Shown one piece after another: positions 1,230 to 62,604 of a stretch of 64,000 nucleotides of DNA. Where the stretch lies: contig CAYLWL010000003.1 in assembly GCA_964387675.1 (NCBI GenBank), positions 6,436 to 70,435 on the forward strand. Direction: 5' to 3'. Numbering within the stretch: position 1 is the first letter of the stretch; each line of letters begins with the position of its first letter. Under the pieces are notes generated by a model. That model had not been told where the DNA came from. It saw only the letters and a list, made by a program, of their open reading frames with translations, and made no database searches. A program made the translations under genes and the position numbers. The stretch is from an uncultured Candidatus Saccharibacteria bacterium. Its GTDB lineage: Bacteria; Patescibacteriota; Minisyncoccia; UBA6257; 2-01-FULL-56-20.

Positions 1230-2702
1230 ATGACACGTTTCTTCGAAATCCTTCCGGGAGCTCTCGCGTGGAGCACCCTAGTTTTGGTGATTGTTTTTTC
1301 GAGGGTTTTGCCCAGCTTTGTTTCTATTTTTATCATACTGTTCGACATTTACTGGCTTCTCAAAACCATATACCTCTCTCTTCATCTGCGAGCCACATTT
1401 ACGGCGATGAAGAAGAATATGAAGATCGACTGGGCAGAGCGTTTGCGAAGGATTCCGCGGTCGCAAGACCTTTACCATTTGATCATCTTGCCGATGTATA
1501 AGGAGCCCTACGAGGTGGTGCGGGAAAGCTTCGAGACCATCCTCGGCGCTCATTACCCGAAAGACAGATTTATCGTTGTTCTCGCCACGGAAGAGCAAGG
1601 AGGGAAAGAGGCGCAAGAAACCGCCAAAAAAATCGAGAAAGAATTCGGCGACGCGTTTTTCAAGTTTTTAGCGATCACGCACCCTGCCGGTCTTCCGGAA
1701 GAAATTCCCGGAAAGGGTTCGAACGAAACATGGGCCGGAAAAGAAGTGAAACGGCTTGTGGTTGATCCTTTGGGGCTGGATTACAAAAAGATACTTGTTT
1801 CCGTTTTCGACGTGGACACACAGGTGTTTCCGGAATACTTCGGACGGCTGGCGTATGTTTTTTTGACCTCGGAGAAACCCTTGCGCGCCATCTACCAGCC
1901 GGTACCGCTTTTCACGAACAACATTTATCGGGCGCCGGCTTTGGCGCGCGTCGTTTCGTTCTCCGCCACGTTTTGGCAGATGATGCAACAGTCGCGGCCG
2001 GAGCGGCTCACTTCTTTTTCTTCGCAGTCCATCCCTTTTCAGGTCTTGGTAGACATCGGTTTTTGGAACACGGACATCGTTTCCGAGGACTCCAGGATTT
2101 TTTGGCAGTGTTTTTTGCACTACGGCGGCGATTTTCGGGTGGAGCCGCTCTTGTACCCGGTTTCGATGGACGCGAACGTTGCCCCGACGTTTTGGGGCAC
2201 GATGAAAAATATTTACAAACAGCAGCGTCGCTGGGGCTGGGGCGTGGAGAACATTCCGTATATGCTCGATGGCTTCAGGAAAAATCCGAACATTTCCCCC
2301 GCTCAAAAGAGATACTGGACGTTCAATGTGCTTGAAGGGTTCCATTCGTGGGCGACGAATTCTTTGATGATCTTCGTGCTTGGCTGGCTGCCGCTCGCGC
2401 TCGGCGGGAAGAGTTTTAACTACACCCTGCTTTCATATAACTTGCCCCAAGTTACCCGGTATATCGTTACCATCTCGATGATTGGCGTGATGAGCTCGGC
2501 GGTTTTGGCGATTCTTTTACTGCCGCCGCGCCCTTCGTGGTTCAAGCCGAAACATTATCTTGTATATTTTTTGGAGTGGATACTGATTCCCATCACGATC
2601 AACGTATTCGGAGCTCTGCCGGGCCTTGAAGCGCAAACAAGGATGATGCTTGGAGGGAAGTTCAGATTGGGATTTTGGGTAACGCCAAAACATAGAGCTT
2701 AG
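1230..2702 (+). CDS. Family 2 glycosyltransferase, processive (cellulose-synthase-like) type, multi-TM
   Basis: 490 aa with N- and C-terminal TM segments. It has a QQRRW motif (QxxRW of processive GT2) and an acidic DxD-like region (FDVDTQ). Confidence 0.7.
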   Translation: MTRFFEILPGALAWSTLVLVIVFSRVLPSFVSIFIILFDIYWLLKTIYLSLHLRATFTAMKKNMKIDWAERLRRIPRSQDLYHLIILPMYKEPYEVVRESFETILGAHYPKDRFIVVLATEEQGGKEAQETAKKIEKEFGDAFFKFLAITHPAGLPEEIPGKGSNETWAGKEVKRLVVDPLGLDYKKILVSVFDVDTQVFPEYFGRLAYVFLTSEKPLRAIYQPVPLFTNNIYRAPALARVVSFSATFWQMMQQSRPERLTSFSSQSIPFQVLVDIGFWNTDIVSEDSRIFWQCFLHYGGDFRVEPLLYPVSMDANVAPTFWGTMKNIYKQQRRWGWGVENIPYMLDGFRKNPNISPAQKRYWTFNVLEGFHSWATNSLMIFVLGWLPLALGGKSFNYTLLSYNLPQVTRYIVTISMIGVMSSAVLAILLLPPRPSWFKPKHYLVYFLEWILIPITINVFGALPGLEAQTRMMLGGKFRLGFWVTPKHRA

Positions 2703-3192
2703 TAGGTGGTAAGTAGTAAGTAGTAGGTGGTAGAATCGAAATATGGCCGAAAAATTGAACATTAAATCCTATAGAGACCTAATCATCTGGCAGAGAACAA
2801 AATCTTCCGCTGTTTTGATATATAAAATAACCGAAAAGTTTCCTACATCCGAGCTTTACGGCATTACGAGCCAAATGCGTCGTGCTGCTGTTTCTATGCC
2901 ATCGAATATCGCAGAGGGATTTAGAAGAAAGTCGGTAAAAGAAAAATTACAATTTTTGCGTATGGCTTACGGATCTGGTGCCGAACTGGAAACTCAACTG
3001 GAAATTAGTCGCGATTTGGGATACTTGAGTGATCAGGATTATAAAAATCTATCTACTGAATTAGACCAGACCATGAAGATGATGAATAGAACAATTAACA
3101 CGCTGGAGAATTAGGTTTGATATAATGAAAGCATCCGGAAACCAATGAAAAAATCAGATTCTACCTACTACCTACTACTTACTACCTACTCG
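2702..3192. mobile_element. Inverted-repeat-bounded cassette carrying a four-helix-bundle gene (MITE-like/IVS-like element)
   Basis: Left arm GTAGGTGGTAAGTAGTAAGTAGTAGGTGGTAGAA (2702-2736). Its reverse complement TTCTACCTACTACCTACTACTTACTACCTAC lies at about 3157-3190. A solo arm copy sits inside uvrC at 57278-57303. Confidence 0.5.
2743..3114 (+). CDS. Four-helix-bundle protein (23S rRNA intervening-sequence protein family; Avd-like fold)
   Basis: 123 aa. Conserved N-terminal motifs L(I)IWQ..., MPSNIAEGF and GSGAELETQLEIS are typical of TIGR02436/PF05635 family proteins. Confidence 0.8.
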   Translation: MAEKLNIKSYRDLIIWQRTKSSAVLIYKITEKFPTSELYGITSQMRRAAVSMPSNIAEGFRRKSVKEKLQFLRMAYGSGAELETQLEISRDLGYLSDQDYKNLSTELDQTMKMMNRTINTLEN

Positions 3193-3963
3193 TCAAGGCG
3201 TGGTTTCACCCTGATCGAGCTCCTCATTTTTGCGGCAATTTTTGCCGGCATCATGATCGCTTTTATATCGATCCTGGTCGTCGTGACGGGCATAGAGGCG
3301 CGCCAGTCGTCGGTGGCCGAAGTGAATCAGCAAAGCCAGTTTCTCCTCCAGCAGATAGAACAGCTCACCGAACGGTCAAGCGTTATCGAATTGCCGGAGA
3401 ATACGGCGACGACCACTCTCATGTTACGGATGCCGTCGCCCTCTGAAGATCCAACCTACCTCACGCTTTCAGACGGGATAGTGTACTTACAGCAAGGCGC
3501 CGGTTCGCAGAATGCTCTTACCTCCAACAAAGTTGTTGTTTCATCGCTCACCTTTACCAAAAAATCCAACGCGCCGGGCCACGATTCGGTTTCCGTATCA
3601 TTCCTTGTGAGCTACAACAGCCAAAGCGTGAAACGGCAATTCTCCCAGACACTGAACACCGCGATCGCGAGGGTCTCGGCGGCCACGTTCGATTCAAACG
3701 TGATTCCTTCCTCGACGGCAACCTACGATCTTGGGGTATCATCCCAAATTTGGAGATCGATCAACAACAAGATTTATTTCAGTGGCTCGAACATAGGCAT
3801 CGGTGTTGTCTCCCCGAATGCTCTTCTCCAAGTGTCCGGCGGAGACGTCTATGTGGATACGGTCGGGAAGGGGATGATAGTACGCGCTCCGGACGGCGGA
3901 TGTTGGCGGATTACGGCCAAAAATGCCGGCGCTTATAATTCTGATTCAGTAGTTTGCCCGTAA
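3145..3963 (+). CDS. Type IV pilin-like protein (prepilin-type N-terminal cleavage/methylation domain)
   Basis: RRGFTLIELLIFAAIFAGIMIAF is a classic prepilin leader (G|FTLIE) plus hydrophobic helix. The annotated N-terminus (MKKSDSTYYLLLTTYSS) is encoded by the right IR arm of the upstream cassette, so the true start is uncertain. Confidence 0.65.
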   Translation: MKKSDSTYYLLLTTYSSRRGFTLIELLIFAAIFAGIMIAFISILVVVTGIEARQSSVAEVNQQSQFLLQQIEQLTERSSVIELPENTATTTLMLRMPSPSEDPTYLTLSDGIVYLQQGAGSQNALTSNKVVVSSLTFTKKSNAPGHDSVSVSFLVSYNSQSVKRQFSQTLNTAIARVSAATFDSNVIPSSTATYDLGVSSQIWRSINNKIYFSGSNIGIGVVSPNALLQVSGGDVYVDTVGKGMIVRAPDGGCWRITAKNAGAYNSDSVVCP

Positions 3964-11875: not shown

Positions 11876-11962
11876 TTATAAATGATTAATCTGTTAAGAT
11901 GTAAACAATTTAGGGTTATTGACCATTAATCTCTTTTCGTATACTATTTCTTAACATACGAA

Positions 11963-11995
11963 GCAAAGAGCAAAGAGCCGAGAGCAAAGAGCGAG
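11963..11995. repeat. Solo copy of the IR arm of the second four-helix-bundle cassette (GCAAAGAGCAAAGAGCCGAGAGCAAAGAGC)
   Basis: Near-identical to 60983-61012. Located in the rpsL upstream region. Confidence 0.55.
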
Positions 11996-12977: not shown

Positions 12978-15098
12978 ATGCCCCGACTGTATCCGATAGA
13001 AAAGGTACGTAATATCGGCATTATTGCCCATATCGACGCCGGGAAGACCACCGTCTCCGAGCGCGTGCTTTTTTATACCGGCGTTTCTCACAAAATCGGC
13101 GAGGTGCACACGGGTGATACCGTGATGGATTGGATGGAACAGGAACGCGAACGGGGGATCACCATCACCTCCGCCGCCACCACGGCTTTTTGGATACCGA
13201 CGCATGTTAGCAAAGAGCAAAGAGCAAAGAGCAAAGAGGACGAGCACATGATCAATTTAATCGATACTCCGGGACACATCGATTTTACCGTGGAGGTCAA
13301 GCGCTCGCTTCGCGTTTTGGACGGCGCCGTCGTCGTGTTCGACGGCGTGGCCGGCGTTGAGCCCCAGTCGGAAACCAACTGGCGTTACGCGGACGAATAC
13401 CACGTGCCGAGAGTTTGCTTTATTAACAAGCTGGACAGAATGGGCGCGAGCTTCGAGAAAAGTTTCGAGTCCATCAAAGATCGTCTTACTCAAAACGCCA
13501 TCCCCATCCAGCTCAACATCGGCCTCGAGGGGGATTTTAAGGGAGTAATAGATCTTCTTGAGGATAAGGCCTACGAATTCCAAGGGGAGCACGGCGAACG
13601 CATCGTCGAGGTTCCGACTCCGGACAATATGAAAGAGTCCATCAAAAAGCACCGCCACGAACTGATCGAAAAGATCGTTGATAATGACGACGAGCTGATG
13701 GCGGGCTATCTTGAGGGAAAAGACATAGACATTGCTTCGCTCAAGAAAGTTTTGCGGAAGGCCGTCATCGAGAACAAGATCGTGCCGGTGATGTGCGGTT
13801 CGGCCCTGAAGAACAAGGGAGTCCAGTTCATGCTCGACGCGGTGGTTGATTACCTGCCGTCTCCGCTTGACATTCCGCCGGTCAAGGGCATTGACCAAAA
13901 GACCGGAGCGGAAGTGTTTCGGCACCCCAAAGACGAAGAGCCGTTTTCCGCGCTCGCGTTCAAAATAGCGACCGATCCGTACGTGGGAACGCTCACATAC
14001 TTCAGGAATTATTCCGGCGTGCTCAAGAAGGGCTCGTATATTTTGAACTCCACGAAAGGCCAGCAGGAGCGCGTGGGCCGCGTCGTCCGCATGCACGCGA
14101 ACTCAAGGGAAGAAGTGGACGAAATTTACGCCGGTGAAATCGCGGCGATCGTCGGCTTGAAGAACACGACGACGGGGGACACCCTGTGCTCTCCCGACGC
14201 GCCTTTGGTGCTCGAGAGGATCACGTTTCCCGAGCCCGTCATCGGCATTCGCATTGAACCCAAAACGAAAGCCGACCAGGAGAAAATGGGCACTGCTCTG
14301 CATCGTCTCGCGGAAGAAGACCCGACGTTCCGCGTTGCCGGGGACCCGGAAACCGGAGAAACCATCATCTCCGGCATGGGCGAACTGCATTTGGAAATTA
14401 TCGTCGACCGGATGAAGCGCGAGTTCAGCGTCGATGCCTCCGTTGGCAGGCCGCAAGTCGCGTATAAAGAAACGATCATGGCCGAAGCCGAGGCGGAAGG
14501 AAAATACATCAAGCAGTCGGGGGGTCGCGGCCAATACGGGCACGTGCGCTTGCGCGTAAAGCCCCTGGAACGTGGCAAGGGATTCGAGTTTATCGACGAG
14601 ATCAAAGGAGGCGTCATTCCGCAGGAGTTCATCGCTCCGGTTGAAAAAGGCGTGAAGGAGGCGCTTGACAAAGGCGTGATCGCGCATTATCCGATGGTGG
14701 ATATCGAGGTGACGCTCTACGACGGATCGTTCCACGAAGTTGATTCTTCGGAGGCGGCGTTCAAGATCGCGGGATCCATGGCTCTCCAGGAAGCCGCGAA
14801 GCGCGCGAAGCCGGTGATTCTTGAGCCCGTTATGAAAATTCAAGTCGTGATCCCCACGGAATTTTTAGGAGAAGTTACGGGCAATTTGAATTCGAAACGC
14901 GGAAGAATCGAAGAACTTTCCGACCGGCCGAACGTTAAAGTGATCGACGCCAAAGTCCCGCTTTCCGAAATGTTCGGATATGCCACGGAACTTCGCTCGA
15001 TGACGCAAGGACGAGGGGCATTCACGTTAGAGTTTGATCATTACGAACCCGCCCCCCAAAATGTTGCCCAACTCATAATTGAAGGCAAAAAAAGGTAG
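12978..15098 (+). CDS. fusA: Elongation factor G
   Basis: [18 protein letters not shown] and full EF-G domains. It contains an in-frame (CAAAGAG)3 repeat-derived insertion (KEQRAKSKE) just before DTPGH. Confidence 0.95.
13209..13232 (+). repeat. (CAAAGAG)3 heptanucleotide repeat in-frame within fusA; solo fragment of the GCAAAGAGC arm family
   Basis: AGCAAAGAGCAAAGAGCAAAGAGG read directly from the sequence. It encodes [10 protein letters not shown] between switch-region motifs. Confidence 0.8.
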
Positions 15099-19435: not shown

Positions 19436-19564
19436 CGGGGCTGTTGACACTCCTTGCGTTATACCCTATCATTACAGTATCTCTTTAATGGACGTTCTTA
19501 TCGTTAAATAGAGAGCGTTTTCACAAGGATAGCCACCGCCGGGCTACGCCTTGGCGGTTTTTGT

Positions 19565-19666
19565 TAAGCGAAATACTAATATACTAATTCGTGCGAATGA
19601 TACTAATGGATACTAATTCGTATTATTTGTATCATTAGCATGCATTCGTATATTGGTATCACATTT
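19565..19666. repeat. Family G intercistronic palindromic element (copy 1 of 5), ends at rplC start codon
   Basis: GCGAAATACTAATATACTAATTCGTGCGAATGATACTAATGGATACTAATTCGTATTATTTGTATCATTAGCATGCATTCGTATATTGGTATCACAT. Near-identical copies at 24525-24629, 25530-25630 and 33558-33664, and a diverged copy at 61839-61914. Confidence 0.75.
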
Positions 19667-20236
19667 ATGTTAATCGCTCGCAAGCACAAAATGACCCAAA
19701 TTTGGAAGGAGAACACCGTGATTCCCGTCACGGTGCTTAAGGCCGAACCGAATAATGTGGCGATCATCCGTACGAGCGAGAAGGATGGCTATACGGCTCT
19801 CCAGTTGCAGAGCGGGAAAGCGAGAAAAGAATTCGGCAAAAAAGACAAAACTTTGGATATATCGAAATTTAAGACCGGCGACGAGCTCGCGGTCGATTTT
19901 TTTGCCGAAGGAGACACGGTGGCCGTCTCCGGCACCGTGAAAGGCAGGGGATTCCAGGGTACGGTGAAGCGCCATGGCTTCGGCGGCGGACCGAAAACGC
20001 ATGGGCAGAAAAATCGTTTTCGCGCGCCGGGCTCCATCGGTTCCACCGCGTTTCAGCGCGTTGTTCCCGGAAGAAGGATGGCGGGGCACATGGGCACGAA
20101 CCGCGTGACCGTAAAAAATCTGAAGGTAGTTGGCGTGGATAAAGAAAAAGGAATTCTCTTTTTGCGGGGCGCGGTTCCCGGCGCGAGAGGCGGAGTCGTT
20201 GAAATTGTAAAAATCAAAAATCAAAAATCAAAATGA
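19667..20236 (+). CDS. rplC: 50S ribosomal protein L3
   Basis: MTQIWKENTVIPVTVL... Start placed at MLIARKHKMTQIW. Upstream in-frame codons belong to the family G repeat. Confidence 0.9.
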   Translation: MLIARKHKMTQIWKENTVIPVTVLKAEPNNVAIIRTSEKDGYTALQLQSGKARKEFGKKDKTLDISKFKTGDELAVDFFAEGDTVAVSGTVKGRGFQGTVKRHGFGGGPKTHGQKNRFRAPGSIGSTAFQRVVPGRRMAGHMGTNRVTVKNLKVVGVDKEKGILFLRGAVPGARGGVVEIVKIKNQKSK

Positions 20237-20328
20237 CAATGCAAAATGTAAAAATGAATAAATTAAAAGTCGTGTCCGCAGGACCCCATAATTTTGCATT
20301 TTGATATTTACATTTTGCGTTTACCAGC
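20237..20328. repeat. Family F intercistronic element (copy 1 of 2); copy 2 at 24002-24113
   Basis: AAAAATCAAAAATCAAAATGACAATGCAAAATGTAAAA...GTCGTGTCCGCAGGACCCC...ATTTTGCATTTTG contains internal inverted repeats (CAAAATGCAAAAT / ATTTTGCATTTTG). Confidence 0.7.
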
Positions 20329-20982
20329 ATGAAAGCCACCGTTTACAATTTGAAGAACGAAAAAGTGGGCGAGATGGAATTGCCATCGTCGATCTTCGAA
20401 GCGAAGTGGAACCCCGTGCTCGTGGCGCAGGTTTTGCGCGCCCAGCTTGCCAACTCGCGCCGGCCTTGGGCTCACGCGAAAACGAGAGCCGAAGTGCGCG
20501 GCGGAGGCAGAAAACCCTGGAGACAAAAAGGAACAGGCAGAGCGAGGCACGGCTCTACTCGTTCTCCTCTCTGGGTCGGCGGCGGAAAAGCGCACGGCCC
20601 GAACAAACTCCGCGATTATAGCCAGAAAGTCAATAAAAAAATGGCCCGCTTGGCGCTTTTTTCCGCGCTCGCCAAGAAGCTCAAAGAGAACCAGCTCAAA
20701 GTGTTCGAAGACATGAACATTGCGGAGCCGAAAACCAAAGTCCTTTCCGCGACTCTCAAGCATCTTTTAAATTTGAAAAAAGATCACAAGAAGATGGACG
20801 TGCTCATGGTCGCCGACCGAGAGAACGCGAACGTTCGGCGCGCCTCATCTAACCTGGTGAAAGCGAAAACACTCGACGCACAATCGCTTAACATCTACGA
20901 CGTTTTGAACCACAAGAATATTTTCGTCGATAAAGCATCGGTTGGCGCGCTCACGAAACACTATGCTAGAAAACAGAAATGA
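20329..20982 (+). CDS. rplD: 50S ribosomal protein L4
   Basis: RGGGRKPWRQKGTGRARHGS...GGGKAHGP. Confidence 0.9.
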   Translation: MKATVYNLKNEKVGEMELPSSIFEAKWNPVLVAQVLRAQLANSRRPWAHAKTRAEVRGGGRKPWRQKGTGRARHGSTRSPLWVGGGKAHGPNKLRDYSQKVNKKMARLALFSALAKKLKENQLKVFEDMNIAEPKTKVLSATLKHLLNLKKDHKKMDVLMVADRENANVRRASSNLVKAKTLDAQSLNIYDVLNHKNIFVDKASVGALTKHYARKQK

Positions 20983-21058
20983 GAAATGAGACATGAGACA
21001 TGAGAAATGAGGAACGAAATACACGAAACCTAATCCCTCATATCTCATATCTATCATT
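20983..21058. repeat. Family E intercistronic palindromic element (GAGAAATGAG...CTCATTTCTC type), copy 1
   Basis: Copies fill the spacers at 21332-21417, 22240-22314, 23251-23329, 26464-26533, 27102-27196, 27746-27835, 28737-28822 and 29261-29323. A diverged copy is at 28190-28271 and a partial one at 62605-62645. Confidence 0.75.
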
Positions 21059-21331
21059 ATGAATACTTTCATCATCAAAAAGCCATTGATTACGGAACGC
21101 GCGACGAATTTGAGCAAACTCGGCAAATATGTTTTTATGGTTGCCGATTTTGCCACGAAGCCGGAGGTCAAAAAAGCGGTCAAGGAAATTTATAAAGTTG
21201 ATGCCGTTTCCGTGAACATCGTGGTGAAGCCGTCCAAAAAGAAAAGGATGGGATCGCTCAAGGGTCGGCGTAAAGGTTATAAAAAGGCGATTGTTACCCT
21301 GAAGAAAGGGCAGAAAATCGAGATACAGTAA
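21059..21331 (+). CDS. rplW: 50S ribosomal protein L23
   Basis: LITERATNLSKLGKYVFMVADFATKPEVKKAVKEIYKVDAVSVNI. Confidence 0.9.
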   Translation: MNTFIIKKPLITERATNLSKLGKYVFMVADFATKPEVKKAVKEIYKVDAVSVNIVVKPSKKKRMGSLKGRRKGYKKAIVTLKKGQKIEIQ

Positions 21332-21417
21332 GAAACTAGAAATGAGACATGAGAAATGAGGAACGAAATACATAAAACCTAATCTCTCATCTCTAATTTC
21401 TCATATCTATAAAATCA
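21332..21417. repeat. Family E element, copy 2
   Basis: AGAAATGAGACATGAGAAATGAGGAACGAAATACATAAAACCTAATCTCTCATCTCTAATTTCTCATATCT. Confidence 0.75.
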
Positions 21418-22239
21418 ATGAAAACCTATTCACCAACAACTCCATCGAGGCGAAGCATGACCGGCGTTGACTACGGCGCCTTGAGCAAAAAGCAACCCTA
21501 TAAACCGCTTCTTGTTCGGCTCAAATCAAATGCCGGCAGAAACTCGCAAGGGAGAATCACCGTGCGCCACCAAGGTGGAGGCAACAAAAAGCTGTACAGG
21601 ATGGTCGACTTTATGCAGAATACCCTGAATGCCAAGGCGGCTGTGGAATCGATTGAATACGATCCGTACCGGACGGCGTTCATCGCTCTCATCAAATATC
21701 CGAACAACGCGAAGAGTTATATTCTTGCGCCGAATACGCTGAAAGCGGGAGACACCGTTTTGGTGGCCGAAGCGGCGCCCCTCAAAGTCGGTAATCGTCT
21801 GAAGATGAAGAACATCCCCGTCGGTTACCAGGTGCACAGCGCGGAACTTTTGCCGGGACATGGCGGGAAGCTCGCGCGCTCGGCCGGTTCGTACGCCGAG
21901 GTTTTGGCGAACGCCGACGGTTACACGGACTTGAAATTGTCTTCGGGAGAAGTGCGGCGCGTTCCGTGGGAAGGGTTCGCCTCCGTCGGGCAGGTTTCGA
22001 ACGCGGAGCATAATCTTGTCGTTATCGGCAAGGCGGGAAGATCGCGGTGGCTCGGCGTGCGCCCCACAGTGCGCGGAAAAGCGATGAACCCGGTTGATCA
22101 CCCCTACGGAGGAGGCGAAGGGAGCCAGCCGCGCGGCACGAGAAAACCGAAGACCCTGTGGGGCAAGATCACCGGCGGCCATAAAACTCGAAACAAAAAG
22201 AAGTGGTCGAGCAAGATGATAGTTAAACGCAGAAAGTAG
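21418..22239 (+). CDS. rplB: 50S ribosomal protein L2
   Basis: 273 aa. GRNSQGRITVRHQGGG...HPYGGGEG. Confidence 0.95.
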   Translation: MKTYSPTTPSRRSMTGVDYGALSKKQPYKPLLVRLKSNAGRNSQGRITVRHQGGGNKKLYRMVDFMQNTLNAKAAVESIEYDPYRTAFIALIKYPNNAKSYILAPNTLKAGDTVLVAEAAPLKVGNRLKMKNIPVGYQVHSAELLPGHGGKLARSAGSYAEVLANADGYTDLKLSSGEVRRVPWEGFASVGQVSNAEHNLVVIGKAGRSRWLGVRPTVRGKAMNPVDHPYGGGEGSQPRGTRKPKTLWGKITGGHKTRNKKKWSSKMIVKRRK

Positions 22240-22314
22240 AAATGAGGCATGAGAAATGAGGAACGAAATACACAAAACCTAATCTCTCATATCTAATTTC
22301 TCATATCTTTTACC
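22240..22314. repeat. Family E element, copy 3
   Basis: GAAATGAGGCATGAGAAATGAGGAACGAAATACACAAAACCTAATCTCTCATATCTAATTTCTCATATC. Confidence 0.75.
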
Positions 22315-22641
22315 ATGTCCAGAAGTTCCAAAAAGGGTCCCTACGTCGATCCAAAACTCTTAAAAAAGATTTCCAAACTGAAGCCGGAGAGCGCGCCGGT
22401 TATTAAAACGTGGTCCAGAGCATCCGAGATTTCTCCGGAAATGGTTGGTTTTATCATCGGCGTTCACAACGGCAAAGTGTTTACCGAGGTCAGAATTTCG
22501 GAGGATATGGTGGGCCATCGGCTCGGCGAGTTTTCTCCGACGAGAAAATTCGTGCGGCACGGCGGAAAGATACAAAAAGAACTGGAGCAAAAGACCGCGC
22601 AGGCAGCGGCTCCGGCGGCGGCAAAAGAAACCAAAAAGTAA
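22315..22641 (+). CDS. rpsS: 30S ribosomal protein S19 (with C-terminal extension)
   Basis: [15 protein letters not shown]...[13 protein letters not shown]. Confidence 0.9.
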
Positions 22642-22728
22642 TCACTAATAACGCGAATACCGGCAAATAACGCTAAGACGACTCGCATTATTACCTAAAA
22701 ACGATTAGCATTATTCGCGAATACTCCC
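22642..22728. repeat. Cargo-less (empty) copy of the AATAACGCGAATA / TATTCGCGAATACTCC inverted-repeat element that elsewhere carries the GxxExxY gene
   Basis: Both arms face each other with a ~50-bp spacer. The right arm ends at the rplV ATG. Confidence 0.6.
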
Positions 22729-23250
22729 ATGACGAAGCAAACGGCAAAACTGAATTACTTGCGAATGACGCCACGAAAAGTGCGGCTGGTTGCCGATCTT
22801 ATCAAGGGCCTGCCTATTAACGAAGCCGAGGCCCAGCTTTTGACGATCCGCAAAAGAGCTGCGGTGCCGCTGTTGAAACTTCTGCGTTCGGCGATGGCCA
22901 ACGTGAAGAACAATAAAAAGTTGAGCGAAGAGAGATTTTTCATAGAAACCTTGAAGGTGGACGGCGGGCCGATGCTCAAACGGTTCCTTCCGCGCGCGCG
23001 CGGCATGGCAACGCCGATTCAGAAAAAAATGAGCCACGTGACGATGGTGCTCGCGGAGCATCCGGACGCGAAGCCGCCTCGGTTCAAGATCGTAGTTCGG
23101 AAGAAAACCAAACTGCCGCCCGGTTCCGAGGGCCCGGTCCGGAGACAAAAGCCAGAGAGGCCGAAAAAGCCGGAACAGGAGGGAGCGAAACCGAAGTCGA
23201 CCGGTTTCTTCAAGAAACTATTCAGGCGGAAAGCCGGATTCGCTAAATAA
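22729..23250 (+). CDS. rplV: 50S ribosomal protein L22 (with basic C-terminal extension)
   Basis: RMTPRKVRLVADLIKGLPINEAEAQL... Confidence 0.9.
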   Translation: MTKQTAKLNYLRMTPRKVRLVADLIKGLPINEAEAQLLTIRKRAAVPLLKLLRSAMANVKNNKKLSEERFFIETLKVDGGPMLKRFLPRARGMATPIQKKMSHVTMVLAEHPDAKPPRFKIVVRKKTKLPPGSEGPVRRQKPERPKKPEQEGAKPKSTGFFKKLFRRKAGFAK

Positions 23251-23329
23251 GAAAACAGAAATGAGAAAGGAGAAATTAGGAACGCTTAACGACCTCATTT
23301 CTCATATCTAATCTCTCATCTCTAACACC
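23251..23329. repeat. Family E element, copy 4 (diverged)
   Basis: GAAATGAGAAAGGAGAAATTAGGAACG...CCTCATTTCTCATATCTAATCTCTCATCTC. Confidence 0.65.
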
Positions 23330-24001
23330 ATGGGACACAAAATTAATCCATTATCACTACGAGTCGGCGTCACGAAGAACTGGCCAGTCAGATGGTTTAT
23401 TAAAGGTAAGTACGCCAAGTTTTTGGAGGAGGACGAAGCGATACGGAACGTGATCAGGTTGAAAATCGGCCAGGCCGGCATTTCCGCGATCGAGATAGAA
23501 CGAACCCAAGGGAGCGTCAAAGTTTTCATCAAAGCCGCGAGGCCCGGGTTCGTAATCGGCCGAGGCGGAAAAGGCATCGAGGATCTGAACAAAGCAATAG
23601 AGAAGGCCTTGAAAAAGGTCCGCAAAGTAAAAACCGCGATTGCTTTAAGCGTGAACGTGGAGGAATTGAAGAGATCGGAAATCGCCGCGCCGTACGTCGC
23701 CCAGCAAATCGCCTGGGATCTCGAGAAGCGTCTGCCGTTCCGGAGAACGCTGAAAAAATATCTTGAAGGAATTATGCAAAACAGGGAAGTGAAGGGAGCG
23801 AAGATCATGATGTCGGGCAGATTGGACGGCAACGAAATAGCGAGGACGGAGTGGCTGGCCAAGGGGTCATTGCCTCTTCAGACATTCCGCGCCGACATCG
23901 ACTATGGAACATCCACCGCTTTTACGACCTATGGAACAATCGGAATAAAGGTGTGGATATATAAGGGCGAGATATTCGCTGACGCTCAAAATAAAAATTA
24001 A
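23330..24001 (+). CDS. rpsC: 30S ribosomal protein S3
   Basis: MGHKINPLSLRVGVTKNW..., with KH and S3-C domains. Confidence 0.9.
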   Translation: MGHKINPLSLRVGVTKNWPVRWFIKGKYAKFLEEDEAIRNVIRLKIGQAGISAIEIERTQGSVKVFIKAARPGFVIGRGGKGIEDLNKAIEKALKKVRKVKTAIALSVNVEELKRSEIAAPYVAQQIAWDLEKRLPFRRTLKKYLEGIMQNREVKGAKIMMSGRLDGNEIARTEWLAKGSLPLQTFRADIDYGTSTAFTTYGTIGIKVWIYKGEIFADAQNKN

Positions 24002-24113
24002 AAAATCAAAAATCAAGATGACAATGCAAAATGTAAAATTAAATAAATTAAAAGTCGTGTCCGCAGGACCCCTAAATTTTGCATTTTGATCTTTGCATTT
24101 TGCATTTACTGAT
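24002..24113. repeat. Family F element, copy 2
   Basis: Near-identical to 20237-20328. Confidence 0.7.
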
Positions 24114-24524
24114 ATGTTGATTCCAAAGAAAGTAAAACATCGTAAGTGGCAGAAAGGCCGCTCGAAGAGACGGCTTGTGGAAACGCGCGGTCTTACTTTG
24201 AATTATGGCCAATATGGTTTAAAATCCCTGGAAGCGGCGTGGCTCAATTCTCGCCAGATCGAGGCGGCGCGGAAAACCATAACGAATTTCTTGAAGCGCA
24301 GCGGCCGCCTGTGGATCAGGGTTTTTCCGGATAAACCGATCACTCAGCAAGCTCCGGAGAAAACGTTGGGCGGCGGCAAGGGCAGTGTCGAATATTATGT
24401 TTTTCCGGTGAGGCCGGGGAGGATTATTTTCGAGATTGACGGCGTTCCCAAAGAAACCGCCACCGAGGCGCTCCGGCTGGCTTCTTATAAACTGCCGTTC
24501 AAAAGCAGAATCATAACCAAATAA
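24114..24524 (+). CDS. rplP: 50S ribosomal protein L16
   Basis: MLIPKKVKHRKWQKGR... Start at the ATG at 24114. The ORF track's TTG at 24093 lies in the repeat. Confidence 0.9.
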   Translation: MLIPKKVKHRKWQKGRSKRRLVETRGLTLNYGQYGLKSLEAAWLNSRQIEAARKTITNFLKRSGRLWIRVFPDKPITQQAPEKTLGGGKGSVEYYVFPVRPGRIIFEIDGVPKETATEALRLASYKLPFKSRIITK

Positions 24525-24629
24525 CAAGCGAAATACTAATATACTAATTCGTGCGAATGATACTAATGGATACTAATTCGTATTATTTGTATCATTAGCA
24601 TGCATTCGTATATTGGTATCACATTATTC
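24525..24629. repeat. Family G element, copy 2
   Basis: Near-identical to 19565-19666. Ends at the rpmC start. Confidence 0.75.
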
Positions 24630-33664: not shown

Positions 33665-35110
33665 ATGCTTGACGACCTCATTAACGAACGGTTAAAAAAA
33701 CTCGACGAGATCAAGAAGGCCGGCCTTGATCCGTATCCTGCGAGCGCCGCGAGAACCTTGGAAATTGCGGAGGCGCGCAAGAAGTTTGACGAGTTGAGCG
33801 CGAGCAAAAAGAGCGTGGTGTTGGCGGGGCGCCTTATGAGTATGCGGGATCAGGGCAATATTTCTTTTTTGGATCTGGCCGACGAGAGCGGGAAAATCCA
33901 GATCGTTTTCAAAAAGGATATTCTGTCGAAGTTCGATTTCTGGAAAGATGTTTTGGATATAGGCGATTTCGTTGAGGCCGGCGGCGTTCTTTTTAAGACG
34001 CAGAAAGGCGAGGAAAGTTTGGAGGTCCACGATTTTCGCATGCTCACTAAATCGCTTCGTCCGATACCGAGCGAGTGGTACGGCGTGCAGGATATAGAGA
34101 CACGCCTTCGCAAGCGGTATTTGGATTTGATCGCCAACAAGGAAACGCGGGAGTTATTCAGAAAAAAAGCCGTTTTCTGGCAGACCATTCGGAATTTTAT
34201 GATCAGGCAGGGATTTTTGGAGGTGTGGACGCCGGTTCTCGAAAACATTCCCGGCGGCGCGGACGCCGAGCCGTTTGTTACTCACCACAATGCTCTAGAC
34301 AGGGATTTTTACCTGCGCATTTCGCTCGAATTGCCGCTCAAGCGACTGCTTGTCGGCGGCTACGACAAGGTCTTCGAAATCGGCCGGCTTTTCAGAAACG
34401 AGGGTATCGACCGCGAGCATTTGCAGGAATATGACGATATGGAATTTTACTGGGGCTACGCCGATTACAAAGATGGCATGAAGTTTGTGGAAAAGTTGTT
34501 CAAGGCGGTCGTTAAAAACGCCGTCGGTTCGATGGAAACCGAATATGAGGGCGCCAAAATCAACTGGGACGGGAAGTGGCCAAAAGTTGATTATTTCTCG
34601 GCGTTCAAAAAAGAAGCGGGCTTGGATTTGAACAAAGTTAATGAAGATGCGTTAAGAAAAAAAGCTCGGGATTTGGGGGTTGCCGTTGACGTTACGTCGG
34701 GCAAGGGGCGACTCATAGACGCGATTTACAAAAAAACCGTAAGGCCAAAACTAATCCAGCCGTGTTTTTTGGTCGGCCATCCGGTGGAAATATCGCCCTT
34801 GGCGAAAGCGGACTCCAAGAATCCCAAGAAAGTTTTGCGTTTTCAGGTTGTGGCGGGAGGCACGGAATTGGGTAACGGTTTTTCAGAGCTCAATGACCCG
34901 ATTGATCAAAAAGAGCGTTTTCAGGCGCAAATGAAGTTGCGCGAAGCTGGCGACAAGGAGGCGCAGATGCTGGACGAGGATTTTGTGGAAGCGTTGGAGT
35001 ACGGCATGCCACCGGCGGTGGGCTTCGGCGTGAGCGAGCGACTGTTCGCGGTGTTGATGAATAAGCCCGTGAGAGAGACGGTGATTTTTCCTCCGATGCG
35101 TTTGGAGTAA
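33665..35110 (+). CDS. lysS: Lysyl-tRNA synthetase (class II)
   Basis: OB anticodon-binding N-terminus. Class II motifs FRNEG, and motif 3 near ERLFAVLMN. Confidence 0.9.
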   Translation: MLDDLINERLKKLDEIKKAGLDPYPASAARTLEIAEARKKFDELSASKKSVVLAGRLMSMRDQGNISFLDLADESGKIQIVFKKDILSKFDFWKDVLDIGDFVEAGGVLFKTQKGEESLEVHDFRMLTKSLRPIPSEWYGVQDIETRLRKRYLDLIANKETRELFRKKAVFWQTIRNFMIRQGFLEVWTPVLENIPGGADAEPFVTHHNALDRDFYLRISLELPLKRLLVGGYDKVFEIGRLFRNEGIDREHLQEYDDMEFYWGYADYKDGMKFVEKLFKAVVKNAVGSMETEYEGAKINWDGKWPKVDYFSAFKKEAGLDLNKVNEDALRKKARDLGVAVDVTSGKGRLIDAIYKKTVRPKLIQPCFLVGHPVEISPLAKADSKNPKKVLRFQVVAGGTELGNGFSELNDPIDQKERFQAQMKLREAGDKEAQMLDEDFVEALEYGMPPAVGFGVSERLFAVLMNKPVRETVIFPPMRLE

Positions 35111-35111
35111 T

Positions 35112-35572
35112 CGCGAATAACGCGAATAATCGGATGAATAACGCGAATAGTAAAATAGTCCTGCCAGAATTAAGTTACTCCATAATCGGAGCCGCCTTTA
35201 GAGTTTTTAATGAATTGGGGTGGGGATTTTCAGAAAAACATTATCAAGGTGCGCTCGCGAAGGAATTAGAAGATGCGGGTCTGCTATTTCGCCGAGAGGT
35301 TTATATCCCCTTCACTTACAAAAGTTCAACCATAGGTCGTTACTTTGCCGATTTCATTGTTAACGATAAGATTCTCCTAGAACTTAAAGTAGTTCCAAAA
35401 TTTGGATACGTTCATTTACATCAGGCATTGGGTCACTTGCATAGTGCAAAGTTGAAACTAGGAATATTAATCTACTTTACACGCGAAGGAATAAAGTATC
35501 GGAGGGTTGTTAATCCGGATGTATAATAATTCGCGTTATTTAATTAAAGATTCGAGTTATTCGCGATTACTC
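35112..35572. mobile_element. Inverted-repeat-bounded cassette carrying a GxxExxY (PD-(D/E)XK) gene
   Basis: Left arm CGCGAATAACGCGAATAATCGGATGAATAACGCGAAT contains the cargo start codon. The right arm is its reverse complement (ATTCGCGTTATTTAATTAAAGATTCGAGTTATTCGCG) and ends at the ATG of the next gene. Empty copies are at 22642-22728 and 25078-25160. Confidence 0.55.
35134..35526 (+). CDS. GxxExxY family protein (PD-(D/E)XK nuclease fold)
   Basis: 130 aa with a GALAKELEDAG motif. The N-terminal MNNANSK is encoded by the repeat arm. Confidence 0.8.
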   Translation: MNNANSKIVLPELSYSIIGAAFRVFNELGWGFSEKHYQGALAKELEDAGLLFRREVYIPFTYKSSTIGRYFADFIVNDKILLELKVVPKFGYVHLHQALGHLHSAKLKLGILIYFTREGIKYRRVVNPDV

Positions 35573-35573
35573 C

Positions 35574-35993
35574 ATGGCTAAGGTGATGGTTTTCGGTGTT
35601 TTCGATGGCATTCATGAGGGCCATCGAGCGCTTTTTCGAGAAGCAAAAAAATACGGCAAATACTTGGTCGCCGTGGTCGCGCAAGACAGGACGGTCGAAT
35701 ACTTGAAGGGCCATCTCCCGAAATATACTTTGGCGAAAAGAATCGAGGACTTGCAAAAAGAAAAACTGGTTAATGAAGTGGCGCTCGGCGACGCCGAGCC
35801 GGGAAGTTATGAAGTCATACTCAAGCATCGGCCGGACGTTCTCGCGCTCGGTTATGACCAGGAAGATTTCAAAGAAAACCTCGAGGAAAATCTGGAAAGA
35901 TTCGATTGGCGGCCGGAGATCGCGGTCTGTCGCTCCTACGAGCCGGAGAAATATCACAGCCACCTGCTTCATTTTGGCAAGTATAAAAATTAA
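35574..35993 (+). CDS. Cytidylyltransferase-like nucleotidyltransferase (HxGH motif; FAD synthetase N-domain-like)
   Basis: FGVFDGIHEGH, then a YLVAVV Rossmann-like segment. 139 aa. Confidence 0.55.
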   Translation: MAKVMVFGVFDGIHEGHRALFREAKKYGKYLVAVVAQDRTVEYLKGHLPKYTLAKRIEDLQKEKLVNEVALGDAEPGSYEVILKHRPDVLALGYDQEDFKENLEENLERFDWRPEIAVCRSYEPEKYHSHLLHFGKYKN

Positions 35994-56512: not shown

Positions 56513-57790
56513 ATGCATCGAGAAAACTTATATAAAAACCTCCCCGATTCTCCGGGCGTATATCTTATGAAGGATGCGTGCGGGGCCGTGATCTATGTCG
56601 GCAAGGCCGGAAATTTGAAAAGACGGGTATCGAGTTACTTCGCGAGAGCCCACGATTTGCGGATCGAGCGATTGGTAAACGAAATTAAAAAGATCGACTG
56701 TCAGAAAACGGACACCGCGCTCGAGGCCTTGATTTTAGAGTCCAAGCTCATCAAACGGCTTAACCCCAAGTTCAATGTCAAAGAAAAAGACGACAAAAGT
56801 TTTTTGTACGTCGCGATTACCAAAGAAAAGTTTCCGCGCGTGCTTTTGGCGAGAGGGTCAAGGGTCAAGAGTCAGGGGTCAAGAATTGATGATTGGTATG
56901 GACCCTTTACTTCGGCCGGCAGTATCCGCGAGGCATTGAAGATTTTGCGCCGGATTTTCCCGTGGAGCAACCACATAGTGACAAGGGACATGAGACAAGC
57001 GACAAGGGACGCCACCAAGCCATGTTTCGATTACGAGATCGGCCTTTGTCCGGGAACCTGCATCGGCGCGATAAGCAGCAAAGATTATTTGAAAAATATC
57101 AACCGGCTCAAATTGTTTTTTGCGGGCAAGAAGCTTCGGGTACTGGGGTCTTTGCAAAAGGAAATGAAAGCGGCGAGCAAGCGCCTGGAATTCGAGAAGG
57201 CCGAAAAACTCCGCCGCCAGATATTCGCCCTTCAACATATTCGCGACACGGCGCTGATTAATGAAGAGCCGTTTCCACATACTACCTACTACCTACCACA
57301 TACTTTTCGTATTGAGGGCTACGACATCTCCAACATCTCCGGCGCTTCCGCCGTCGGCGCGATGGTGGTGTTCAGGGGCGATCATCCGCGGAAAGACGAG
57401 TATCGGAAGTTCAAAATAAAAACAATCCACGGTTCTCATGATGTCGGCATGCTCCGCGAAGTTCTCGGGCGTCGATTTGGAAATTGGAAATTGGAAATTG
57501 GAAATTCGAAGAGATGGCCTCTGCCCGACCTCATTCTTGTCGACGGCGGCATTCCCCAGGTGAACGCCGCGCGATCGGTGCTTCGCGAATATGGCCTTGC
57601 CATCCCGATTGTGGGCATAGCCAAGGGGCCAACGAGAAAAAGGAATGACGTTATCGGGATTATTCCAGCGGGCATTAGTCGAAAAACGCTTATCCGCGTG
57701 CGTGACGAAGCGCACCGCTTCGCCATCGGTTATCACAAAAAACTCCGCGGCAGAGAATTCATTCCTCGAACTAACGAACGGTCACTTTGA
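56513..57790 (+). CDS. uvrC: Excinuclease ABC subunit C, short form lacking C-terminal (HhH)2 domain, with several repeat-derived in-frame insertions
   Basis: GIY-YIG (GVYLMKDACGAVIYVGKAGNLKRRVSSY), a UVR domain (LEFEKAEKLRRQIFALQHI), and an RNase H-like endonuclease region. Insertions are at 56850-56885, 56975-57015, 57278-57303 and 57479-57506. Confidence 0.8.
   Translation: MHRENLYKNLPDSPGVYLMKDACGAVIYVGKAGNLKRRVSSYFARAHDLRIERLVNEIKKIDCQKTDTALEALILESKLIKRLNPKFNVKEKDDKSFLYVAITKEKFPRVLLARGSRVKSQGSRIDDWYGPFTSAGSIREALKILRRIFPWSNHIVTRDMRQATRDATKPCFDYEIGLCPGTCIGAISSKDYLKNINRLKLFFAGKKLRVLGSLQKEMKAASKRLEFEKAEKLRRQIFALQHIRDTALINEEPFPHTTYYLPHTFRIEGYDISNISGASAVGAMVVFRGDHPRKDEYRKFKIKTIHGSHDVGMLREVLGRRFGNWKLEIGNSKRWPLPDLILVDGGIPQVNAARSVLREYGLAIPIVGIAKGPTRKRNDVIGIIPAGISRKTLIRVRDEAHRFAIGYHKKLRGREFIPRTNERSL
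57479..57506 (+). repeat. (GGAAATT)4 heptanucleotide tandem repeat inside uvrC coding sequence
   Basis: Read directly from the sequence. It encodes GNWKLEIGNS. The unit length is not a multiple of 3. Confidence 0.9.
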
Positions 57791-60830: not shown

Positions 60831-60983
60831 ATGGGCGGCGTACCGGTAAAACATCACTCAAAAGGAAAAGTAGGCCGGAGACGGTCTCATTTGGCGCTCA
60901 AAAAGCAGCGTCTTTTCGTTTGTGCAAACTGCGGCGGGCCAAAGGTGGCGCATCGGGTTTGCAGACAGTGCGGGAAGTCGTAG
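60831..60983 (+). CDS. rpmF: 50S ribosomal protein L32 (zinc-binding form); below the 60-aa ORF-track cutoff
   Basis: Manually translated: MGGVPVKHHSKGKVGRRRSHLALKKQRLFVCANCGGPKVAHRVCRQCGKS. It matches the bacterial L32 pattern RR.H.AL......C.NCG.PK..HRVC..CG. Confidence 0.8.
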   Translation: MGGVPVKHHSKGKVGRRRSHLALKKQRLFVCANCGGPKVAHRVCRQCGKS

Positions 60984-61392
60984 CAAAGAGCAAAGGGCCG
61001 AGGGCAAAGAGCATACAGCATGTTTAGATTTGAAAACTTAGAAATTTGGCGCTTGGGCGTTGATTATGGCAAAGATTGTTACAAAATTTCCTCATCTTTT
61101 CCCGGGCATGAAAGATTCGGGTTGGGTGACCAGCTTCGTCGAGCCGCTATCTCCATTTCCAACAATATCGCAGAAGGATCTGTTGGCTCCACGGCAAACT
61201 TTAAAAAATATCTCGTCACCGCATTGGGTTCAACTCTAGAAACTGTCAATATATTGAATTTTGCTTGCGAAGTTGGTTACATAACCGCCAATATTAAGGA
61301 AGAAATGTATGGTAGGGCAGAGTTGTTAATTAAGAAGTTAAGAGCGTTTTCTAAAGTTTTAAACCCTTAGCTCTTTGCTCTTCGCTCTTTGC
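60983..61392. mobile_element. Second inverted-repeat-bounded cassette carrying a four-helix-bundle gene, inserted with no spacer between rpmF and nusB
   Basis: Left arm GCAAAGAGCAAAGGGCCGAGGGCAAAGAGC (60983-61012). Right arm GCTCTTTGCTCTTCGCTCTTTGC (61370-61392) is its imperfect reverse complement. Solo arm copies at 11963-11995 and 13209-13232. Confidence 0.55.
61020..61370 (+). CDS. Four-helix-bundle protein (23S rRNA intervening-sequence protein family), second copy
   Basis: 116 aa. LEIWRLGVDYGKDCYKI..., ISNNIAEGS and GSTLETVNIL are paralogous to the protein at 2743-3114. Confidence 0.8.
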   Translation: MFRFENLEIWRLGVDYGKDCYKISSSFPGHERFGLGDQLRRAAISISNNIAEGSVGSTANFKKYLVTALGSTLETVNILNFACEVGYITANIKEEMYGRAELLIKKLRAFSKVLNP

Positions 61393-61914: not shown

Positions 61915-62604
61915 ATGCAACCAAAACCAGACAACCTTGAGGAAAAAGTCGGGGTAAAATTCAAGAATCCCGATTTGTTGATCGAGGCCCTCACGCACCG
62001 CTCGTATCTCAACGAATATCCGAAGTGGCGCCTGCCGCATAATGAACGCCTTGAGTATCTGGGCGACGCGGTTTTGGAACTCATGGTCACCGAAGAACTA
62101 TTCTCCCGATTCCCGAGTTATCCGGAGGGACAGCTTACCGTTTTGAGGGCGGCGCTCGTGAATTATCAAACGCTGTCTAAAATCGCCGAAGAAATAAAAC
62201 TGCAAAGTTTTATTTTGCTTTCGCGGGGAGAAAAGAAAGATATGGGCAAGGCGCGAGAGGTGATTCTCGCGAACGCGATGGAGGCGGTCATCGGGGCGAT
62301 GTATCTCGACCATGGTTTTGAGCCGACCAGGAAGTTCGTTAAAAAGTTCGTTATGGCGCGCCTCGACGAAATTATGAAGACCAAAAGCTATAAAGACGCG
62401 AAGAGCGAGCTTCAGGAGATAGTGCAGGAACGATTGAAAGTTACGCCGACGTATAAGGTCTTGGAAGAGTCCGGGCCGGCTCATAAGCGAGTTTTCAAAA
62501 TCGGGGTTTATTTCGGAGAAAAACTCATTGCTTCCGGCTCTGGCGCCTCAAAGCAAGACGGCGAGATCGAAGCGGCGAAGGAGGCAGTGAAGAGGTATAG
62601 ATAG
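61915..62604 (+). CDS. rnc: Ribonuclease III
   Basis: ALTHRSYLNE, the ERLEYLGDAVLEL signature, and a C-terminal dsRBD. Confidence 0.9.
   Translation: MQPKPDNLEEKVGVKFKNPDLLIEALTHRSYLNEYPKWRLPHNERLEYLGDAVLELMVTEELFSRFPSYPEGQLTVLRAALVNYQTLSKIAEEIKLQSFILLSRGEKKDMGKAREVILANAMEAVIGAMYLDHGFEPTRKFVKKFVMARLDEIMKTKSYKDAKSELQEIVQERLKVTPTYKVLEESGPAHKRVFKIGVYFGEKLIASGSGASKQDGEIEAAKEAVKRYR

Follow-up and report, generated by a model that had tools for sequence, protein, structure and literature searches.

The genomic stretch analysed here comprises 64,000 nucleotides of contig CAYLWL010000003.1 (assembly GCA_964387675.1), to which our view of this genome is confined and which is referred to below as the window. 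It encodes a small four-helix-bundle (4HB) protein between a glycosyltransferase family 2 (GT2) gene and a gene for a prepilin-type (type IV pilin/pseudopilin-like) protein. The 4HB gene is enclosed by two inverted arrays of tandem 7-nt repeats, and gene and arms together (the window cassette) form a unit of ~490 nt that occupies the whole GT2-prepilin spacer (Table 1). An earlier note on this DNA had proposed that the cassette shares its architecture, a long stem plus a cargo open reading frame (ORF), with the intervening sequences (IVSs) of 23S rRNA, and that it has spread into a protein-coding neighbourhood as a mobile element resembling a miniature inverted-repeat transposable element (MITE). 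The architecture is matched by the IVS of Coxiella burnetii, including its heptamer arms, and the neighbourhood is protein-coding, as the adjacent genes are those for GT2 and the prepilin and no rRNA was detected by Rfam or blastn. The phenomenon proved broader than that note had supposed. The window cassette is not a fixed-end MITE that came out of rRNA; it exemplifies a widespread unit in which a 4HB gene lies within inverted arrays of 7-9-mers, of which the rRNA IVSs appear to be a special case that was noticed first.

Anatomy of the window cassette

Nucleotides 2701-2728 and 3163-3190 form 28-nt arms that are complementary at 26 of 28 positions (93%); the inverted repeat (IR) described in the earlier note is thus real, but the second arm is not the exact reverse complement of the first. 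Because both arms are tandem repeats, several pairing registers are possible, and further registers stretch the duplex to 2700-2737 and 3157-3192. When the RNA of positions 2690-3205 was folded, the arms formed the closing stem in the minimum free energy (MFE) and centroid structures alike, with z = -3.3 relative to dinucleotide shuffles. The flanking-IR score of the window cassette was 22 and exceeded the 99th percentile (16) of 676 control genes. The left arm opens on the GT2 stop codon TAG (2700-2702) and contains stop triplets in all three frames, as read directly from the sequence. The right arm is the complement of the left, which keeps all three of its frames open and makes it tolerable within a coding region. 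No target-site duplication was found around the window cassette, which is flanked by AGAGCT on the left and CGTCAA on the right. The cassette sequence is identical across nine assemblies, namely the metagenome-assembled genome GCA_016204365.1 and eight independent read-set assemblies, and no variation in arm copy number within the population was observed among these nine.

The 4HB ORF matches PF05635 over profile positions 1-105 of 106 (E = 3e-38, 130.8 bits, cut-off 33.8) and TIGR02436 with E = 1e-37 (128.4 bits, cut-off 24). This family is very large, with 21,864 clusters at 50% identity (E <= 1e-3). To our knowledge, no function has been assigned to it outside diversity-generating retroelements (DGRs), and we know of no catalytic activity of the 4HB fold. 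The accessory protein of DGRs (bAvd) belongs to the same four-helix-bundle superfamily, and the ORF gives weak matches to PF22296 and NF033474 that stay below the respective cut-offs (24 vs 40 bits and 29 vs 80). Neither a reverse transcriptase nor a template/variable repeat pair was seen beside the cassette, whose neighbours are the GT2 and prepilin genes, no window-wide search having been made. The nearest solved relative is XCC0516 of Xanthomonas (PDB 2GSC, five chains; E = 5e-23), and XCC0516/S23p is a homopentamer according to the passage of PMC4990558 that cites Lin et al. (2006). The -10-like hexamer TAGAAT upstream of the 4HB start codon is a possible promoter of its own for a leaderless 4HB mRNA, as judged from its sequence and position. 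A two-hexamer promoter scan of 2500-3400 returned no -35/-10 promoter, and the promoter calls made here rest on conservation of the extended -10 element across loci.

The downstream ORF contains a G/F(T/S)LIE-type motif followed by a hydrophobic helix (RRG/FTLIELLIFAAIFAG, where the slash marks the end of the leader), and its homologues are labelled prepilin-type or pseudopilin by their sources. Its leader, MKKSDSTYYLLLTTYSSRRG, which precedes FTLIELL, is 20 aa long, compared with 4-10 aa in orthologues at empty sites. The right arm had been thought to supply the first ~16 prepilin codons. It does encode leader sequence, but it corresponds to codons 5-16 (DSTYYLLLTTYS) in the arrangement MKKS-DSTYYLLLTTYS-SRRG/FTLIELL, and the ATG at 3145 does not derive from it. 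This ATG also lies within the cassette loop, past the 4HB gene but ahead of the right arm, and no second in-frame start besides it was found ahead of G/FTLIELL. A TGnTAnAAT box is present ~10-19 nt 5' of the pilin ATG in nearly all orthologous loci, empty or occupied. Because prepilin peptidase removes prepilin leaders, the 12 extra leader residues are probably harmless and the insertion tolerated. Leaders resembling translated heptamers, for example TTYHLPPTTY, TYYLLHTTY and ILHSTFYILHS, are found in many pilin orthologues of the protein database.

In a genome of another member of the candidate phyla radiation (CPR), a stopless 4HB ORF reads via its 3' heptamer arm into a prepilin (L175:1450-1940, also L176). 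The resulting 316-aa fusion (P0122), in which the linker SRSPLNPQSSILNSERG is followed by G/FTIIELL, is found in two independent assemblies and adjoins a prepilin peptidase gene. Further top 4HB homologues (P0124, P0126, P0127 and P0131) are likewise fused to proteins with N-terminal hydrophobic segments.

Inverted heptamer arms around 4HB genes

The flanking-IR score (ungapped, +1/-2; threshold >= 13) had a median of 7 and a 95th percentile of 10 among the 676 control genes, ~2% of which reached the threshold. It was reached by 10 of 11 PF05635 genes from Paceibacteria loci and the window, and by 46 of the 76 testable loci among 80 4HB loci that were retrieved from public metagenomes by family alignment; many of the others still have recognisable inverted heptamers. 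The arm period was 7 in 35 of these 46 cassettes, 8 in 8 and 9 in 3, and the repeat units were almost all different. Across 52 cassettes, the median length was 465 nt, and median distances of 23 nt and 11.5 nt separated the 5' arm from the start codon and the stop codon from the 3' arm, respectively. Rfam identified no rRNA in the window, only two tRNAs, and blastn with Escherichia coli 16S and 23S rRNA detected none in the window or in 160 loci.

Pairs of 4HB proteins with at least ~65% identity had a mean Jaccard index of arm 6-mers of 0.20, compared with ~0.01 for more distant pairs, and no tblastx similarity was found between the 2-kb flanks of such related pairs (e.g. L103/L147, L146/L147 and L093/L104). 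Gene and arms are thus shown to be inherited and duplicated as one unit. The sharing of arms by related 4HB genes in unrelated flanks argues for a duplicating unit of arms plus gene, and against a gene dropping into any hairpin.

Of 57 cassettes in the window and in loci L018-L174, 47 have a purine-rich 5' arm (mean 63%), and stop triplets number 2.5 in the 5' arm vs 1.4 in the 3' arm (p = 0.002), which holds whichever strand is read. The purine richness was considered as a test of polarity between gene and arms and was rejected, since a near-perfect IR reads alike from either strand and cannot separate the models.

Table 1. Coordinates of the genes, arms, promoter elements and repeat arrays discussed in the text (window positions).
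Feature	Position	Strand	Remarks
GT2 glycosyltransferase gene	1230..2702	+	Upstream neighbour; anchor for the search for orthologous loci
Left (5') arm	2700..2737	+	Heptamer array TAGTAGG/TGGTAAG, ~4.9 units (array 2700-2733); purine-rich
TAGAAT hexamer	2731..2736	+	-10-like, 6 nt 5' of the 4HB ATG; same position in L018 and L023
4HB gene	2743..3114	+	123 aa; PF05635 (23S_rRNA_IVP), TIGR02436
Prepilin-gene extended -10 box TGATATAAT	3118..3126	+	In the loop, 3' of the 4HB stop codon; conserved across loci
Prepilin-type gene	3145..3963	+	N_methyl PF07963, 20.2 bits, just below the cut-off of 21.2
Right (3') arm	3157..3192	+	CTACCTA x4.3 (array 3161-3190); pyrimidine-rich
Solo (AGCAAAG)x4 array	13209..13238	+	In frame in EF-G; unit of the second-cassette arms
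Third cassette	35103..35574	+	46-nt IR of period 9, CGCGAATAA; GxxExxY/PDDEXK_3 gene (TIGR04256) at 35134-35526
Solo TACTACC array	57277..57303	+	Heptamer family of the window cassette; in frame in the uvrC-like gene
Second cassette	60982..61392	+	(AGCAAAG)n 60982-61013 and (CTTTGCT)n 61364-61392 around a 4HB paralogue at 61020-61370
rnc (ribonuclease III)	61915..62604	+	TIGR02191, 250 bits (cut-off 166); two genes downstream of the second cassette

Empty and occupied GT2-pilin loci

A comparison of orthologous GT2-pilin loci for an empty site, as suggested in the earlier note, was carried out with 80 loci from Paceibacteria-type genomes that were fetched with the GT2 gene as anchor; the GT2, 4HB, pilin and cupredoxin genes were located and the spacers read. 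Further loci, among them L172 and L174, were obtained in a search with the pilin. Nineteen GT2-pilin spacers are empty, containing neither an IR nor a 4HB gene, and are followed by pilin genes with a short leader (e.g. MKVRRG/FTIIELL) and TGnTAnAAT ~10 nt before the ATG. Seven GT2-pilin loci are occupied, namely the window, L018, L023, L041 and L084 from the GT2 search and L172 and L174 from the pilin search. Their order is constant: stop codon, 5' arm, 4HB gene, -10 box, ATG, 2-4 codons, 3' arm and (R/K)xG/F. Because the ATG precedes the arm, the 3' arm is translated as leader in every occupied locus. The arms of L018, L172 and L174 belong to the same family as those of the window cassette (GTAGGTG/GTAAGTA), and different units are found in L023, L041 and L084. 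The 4HB gene of L084 lies on the opposite strand, with the orientation of the pilin promoter and ATG unchanged. In addition, three to four loci (L171, L047, L028) contain a hairpin only, with heptamer arms around the promoter and ATG and no 4HB gene. A cassette resembling that of the window (69% identity, GGTGGTA arms) is located downstream of the cupredoxin gene in L062, not upstream of the pilin gene.

The site is therefore polymorphic for the cassette, which was gained or lost; the nearest genomes are only ~70% identical in GT2, and the direction is not readable at this distance. The closest pilin relative (71% identity) is that of L171, which has a rearranged context with DoxX upstream and arms unrelated to those of the window cassette. 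No closer relative with a precise empty site was found, and since L171 is rearranged and carries an unrelated hairpin, the exact insertion boundaries are not definable. None of the three findings that the earlier note had named as refuting its reading was made.

Sister cassettes and heptamer arrays in the window

The window contains two further cassettes. The second cassette sits between a small upstream ORF and nusB-rnc and encloses the only 4HB paralogue in the window, which is 34% identical to the 4HB protein of the window cassette; its closing stem is present in the MFE and centroid folds. The presence of rnc in the window, as previously noted, was borne out. The third cassette has a GxxExxY gene as cargo, and its IR, which is 83% complementary, starts in the final codons of the upstream gene, takes in its stop codon and reaches up to the base before the downstream ATG; here, too, the closing stem is found in the MFE and centroid folds. 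As read from the sequence, no direct repeats flank the second or the third cassette, and a scan of viral contigs found no GxxExxY relatives.

Arrays of period 7 number 32 in the window, compared with 0.4 in shuffles, and comprise at least 14 different units; among periods 4-15, none except 7 and 14 (2x7) gives more than five arrays. The 18-mer CTACCTACTACCTACTAC of the window cassette is found again with 1-2 mismatches at 57275-57299, in frame in a uvrC-like ORF (56513-57790), where 0.00 occurrences are expected from shuffles. The solo arm copy reported for uvrC in the earlier note is hence real and far beyond chance, but as one of 32 arrays, which fall into at least 14 heptamer families, it is no sign of the cassette spreading there and does not, taken alone, point to transposition. 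The TACTACC array immediately precedes the segment alignable to solved endonuclease domains of UvrC. The AGCAAAG unit of the second cassette recurs in frame in the gene for elongation factor G (EF-G), where, compared with solved EF-G structures, it forms an insertion of 8 residues just ahead of the DTPGH motif, and in a hairpin arm at 11962-11992. Within the 64 kb covered, uvrC, EF-G and position 11962 are the places at which a cassette unit recurs in an array outside the cassettes. Most intergenic arrays form hairpins with a nearby partner, and dozens of such heptamer hairpins without cargo are present in the window.

The uvrC-like ORF (425 aa) contains four in-frame arrays between 56854 and 57510 (AGGGTCA, GACAAGG, TACTACC and TTGGAAA), all of which fall in linkers or loops when compared with solved UvrC domains.

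In the ribosomal-protein operon at 19436-29323 (L3 to beyond L16), a hairpin of ~85 nt is found in nearly every spacer, with AGAAATG/AGACATG vs CTCATMT/CTAATTT arms and the conserved loop GGAACGAAATACAYRAAACCTAATC. The antisense (minus-strand) RNA folds more stably in 12 of 16 spacers (mean difference 4.7 kcal/mol, p = 0.04; the copies are one family and not independent), and the hairpin mismatches are consequently A:C in the mRNA sense. A second hairpin family with 8-10-nt units (ATACTAAT/ATTCGTAT) is present at 33563-33655, 19573-19617, 24533-24577 and 25535-25579; in one copy, arms of 44 nt enclose a 5-nt loop, and copies also occur within the ribosomal-protein operon.

Relation to rRNA intervening sequences

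IVSs with an S23p/PF05635 gene are found in the 23S rRNA of Leptospira, Brucella and Xanthomonas as well as Coxiella. The defining location of an IVS is a helix tip (H9, H25 or H45) of a 23S or 16S rRNA gene, and the name-giving IVSs of the family have been unexplained since about 1990. RNase III excises IVS stems in other bacteria. The helix-45 IVS of Coxiella burnetii is 428-444 nt long and has a terminal-IR stem of 28 bp; its S23p ORF is immediately preceded by two or three tandem copies of GACAGAT, depending on the strain, and the stem is cleaved by RNase III at the first of these repeats (PMC4990558). The window cassette shares with such IVSs the ~28-bp IR stem, the loop of ~400 nt, the S23p-family cargo, the tandem heptamers, the total length (~430-490 nt) and a host that encodes RNase III. 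It differs in its location between GT2 and prepilin genes, in that one arm is coding and in that the promoter and ATG of the neighbour lie in the loop, and any excision here would be by analogy. These cassettes are very probably the same kind of element as the rRNA IVSs, located outside rRNA. In a survey of the CPR, 23S_rRNA_IVP ORFs were found within insertions in 16S and 23S rRNA (PMC11270868), which together with the cassettes described here indicates that rRNA and non-rRNA contexts both exist in this group.

Within the searchable open-access literature, only the Coxiella paper ties heptamer repeats to an IVS, and an earlier description elsewhere is possible; no statement was found in the searchable literature that 4HB genes outside rRNA are generally bounded by inverted heptamer arrays. 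The anatomy of an IVS, an inverted stem of tandem 7-nt repeats around an ORF, is the normal state of 4HB genes outside rRNA, and the question shifts from why ORFs occur in some rRNA insertions to what the stem-plus-4HB unit is. Furthermore, repeat arms have been absorbed into coding sequence in prepilin leaders, EF-G and UvrC, and in one case an arm fuses a 4HB ORF to a prepilin. Rickettsia palindromic elements, reported by Ogata et al. (2000), are selfish palindromic DNA lying in frame in protein genes. The likeness would lie in repeat-derived DNA that is tolerated in frame in housekeeping genes, here EF-G, UvrC and the prepilin leader, and the difference in that single heptamer arrays of ~30 nt are involved here and not palindromes of 100-150 nt.

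The explanation that we favour, and regard as reasonably probable, is an IVS-type stem-loop cassette outside rRNA that is inherited as a unit and whose stem RNase III would cut in read-through RNA. Transcripts reading through from GT2 would contain both arms and could form a duplex of 28-40 bp. The host RNase III might cut this duplex as it does in the IVSs of 23S rRNA, which would liberate the loop RNA and leave the messages on either side uncoupled. Such a cut would destroy the pilin start region on GT2 read-through transcripts, and transcripts starting from the putative internal -10 boxes (TAGAAT and TGATATAAT) would carry the 3' arm only and stay intact.

Several points weigh against this explanation. 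RNase III processing of the window-cassette stem is proposed by analogy, its chances being slightly short of even. No G:U bias of stem mismatches was found on the 4HB sense strand (38 vs 41 A:C, with 71 of the transversion type), and because there is no G:U excess, the complementarity may reflect homogenisation of the arms at the DNA level and not selection at the RNA level. The MFE difference likewise gave a null result for RNA-level selection (32 vs 24, p = 0.49). The overall fold of the second cassette is not significantly beyond shuffles (z = -1.5). The insertion of a single block sits awkwardly with a pilin promoter and ATG that follow the 4HB gene and precede the right arm, and the hairpin-only loci L171, L047 and L028 as well as the inverted 4HB gene in L084 fit better with a hairpin that preceded the gene. 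Finally, no enzyme can be proposed for the mobility of the unit, and its cargo is not an enzyme.

Alternative explanations

The hairpins may have come first: heptamer hairpins, regulatory or selfish, would be the primary elements and would surround spacers as well as the pilin promoter and ATG, and the 4HB gene would be a passenger that entered their loops or was deleted from them. The location of IVSs at the tips of rRNA helices would then offer a parallel. We regard this as unlikely, although it would account for the dozens of cargo-less heptamer hairpins in the window, including those in nearly every spacer of the ribosomal-protein operon, for the arms around promoter and ATG without a 4HB gene in L171, L047 and L028, for the inversion of the 4HB gene but not of the pilin promoter and ATG in L084, and for the unrelated arms of L171 and the window cassette, whose pilins are the closest pair. 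Random entry into hairpins would not yield related 4HB genes with related arms in unrelated contexts, however, and the arms lie very close to the ORF (at median distances of 23 nt and 11.5 nt). The hairpin-only loci are equally explicable as remnants of deletion.

A further possibility, which we consider rather improbable, is that the 4HB protein binds its own heptamer array sequence-specifically as a pentamer, with the cassettes as master copies and the same-unit hairpins and in-frame arrays as non-autonomous derivatives or regulatory targets. Both 4HB cassettes of the window do have same-unit arrays elsewhere (TACTACC in uvrC; AGCAAAG in EF-G and at 11962-11992), and protein and arm similarity co-vary; common descent of the entire cassette would account for this co-variation equally well, and the sharing of arms is limited to the closest protein pairs. 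Arrays of ~4-5 units would suit a homopentamer such as that given for XCC0516/S23p in the cited passage of PMC4990558 and seen in the five chains of 2GSC. An inverted, dispersed repeat around a gene is also the pattern of REP-associated tyrosine transposases (RAYTs) and REPINs, hairpin-forming doublets of repetitive extragenic palindromic (REP) sequences, in which a repeat scattered as hairpins also brackets the gene in inverted orientation (Bertels and Rainey, 2011; PMC3116915). The likeness may extend to the dispersal of the short inverted repeat, mostly as hairpin doublets, and to a repeat flavour particular to each gene copy. In contrast to RAYTs, the cargo here is a 4HB protein and not an HUH tyrosine transposase, tandem 7-mers stand in place of palindromic REPs of ~20 nt, arrays of the cassette type also lie in frame in genes, and no transposition intermediate is known. 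The 4HB fold is without known catalysis, the cassette holds neither a nuclease nor a transposase, and most heptamer families have no 4HB partner within the 64 kb.

Cyanobacteria, Bacteroidetes and Beggiatoaceae are probably groups rich in the 4HB family. The same three groups are known for heptamer direct repeats, namely TAACTGA in Beggiatoaceae and Bacteroidetes and the short tandemly repeated repetitive (STRR) sequences in Cyanobacteria, which often lie just 5' of start codons and in ribosomal-protein operons (MacGregor, 2015; PMC4679880), and this would also be in line with binding of the arrays by 4HB proteins. The arrays of the window resemble STRR and TAACTGA repeats in being abundant between genes, in having 2-6 or more heptamer copies, often before start codons, and in that their origin and function are unexplained. 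They differ in the many units per genome, in the inverted pairs, in the linkage to 4HB and GxxExxY genes and in the CPR/Paceibacteria host. If true, the binding of arrays by 4HB pentamers would provide a single explanation for the rRNA IVSs, for the very large 4HB family and for the STRR/TAACTGA-type heptamers of Cyanobacteria, Bacteroidetes, Beggiatoaceae and the CPR.

The MITE-like mobile element of the earlier note is not supported, and we consider a classical MITE or terminal-inverted-repeat (TIR) element, whose fixed terminal IR a transposase would recognise and disperse in single or paired copies, highly improbable. The IR at both ends, the presence/absence polymorphism at GT2-pilin loci and the occurrence of the window-cassette heptamer in uvrC would be expected of such an element, but the arms are tandem repeats of 7-9 nt and not unique, conserved termini, and their sequences vary among cassettes, within one genome and between genomes, with the three cassettes of the window and 56 others differing in unit. 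None of the three window cassettes has a target-site duplication, no near-identical copies are present in the window, where the sole paralogue is 34% identical, and the promoter and start codon of the downstream gene lie inside the unit. Movement of the unit is not classical TIR transposition.

A chance match of two low-complexity tracts without any biological unit can be practically discounted: both arms are simple repeats, which inflates ungapped matches and allows several registers, but the expectation for the 18-mer in shuffles is 0.00, the IR score lies above the 99th percentile of the 676 controls, and the recurrence of such arms around 4HB genes at 56 other loci, each with a different unit, refutes this explanation.

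Other cargo candidates and inverted repeats

Genes for GIY-YIG proteins and small Cas2-like (PaaX_M) genes scored high among the controls and were considered as further types of cargo. The GIY-YIG genes were rejected, as only one of eight had an IR. The Cas2-like genes were likewise rejected, since they are flanked by copies of a palindromic, operator-like site that is different from the heptamer stem. In these genes (L063:2167-2673, L066:7147-7656 and L086:961-1560), TTGTTAACA...CGATCG...TGTTAACAA is present on both sides.

Two additional IRs were observed in the window. The arms at 43599-43628 and 44475-44504 form a 30-nt IR with 90% complementarity around ~850 nt, in GC-rich, structured-looking flanks. 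The interior contains a minus-strand ORF of 229 aa without a Pfam match and a bidirectional terminator-like hairpin (43655-43680). Regarding the question of whether this IR splits an RNA gene, Rfam gave only chance-level matches on 43200-44900. The second, a 27-nt IR with 93% complementarity and 114 nt between its arms (40722-40748 and 40863-40889), is located at the end of the ORF at 38915-40720.

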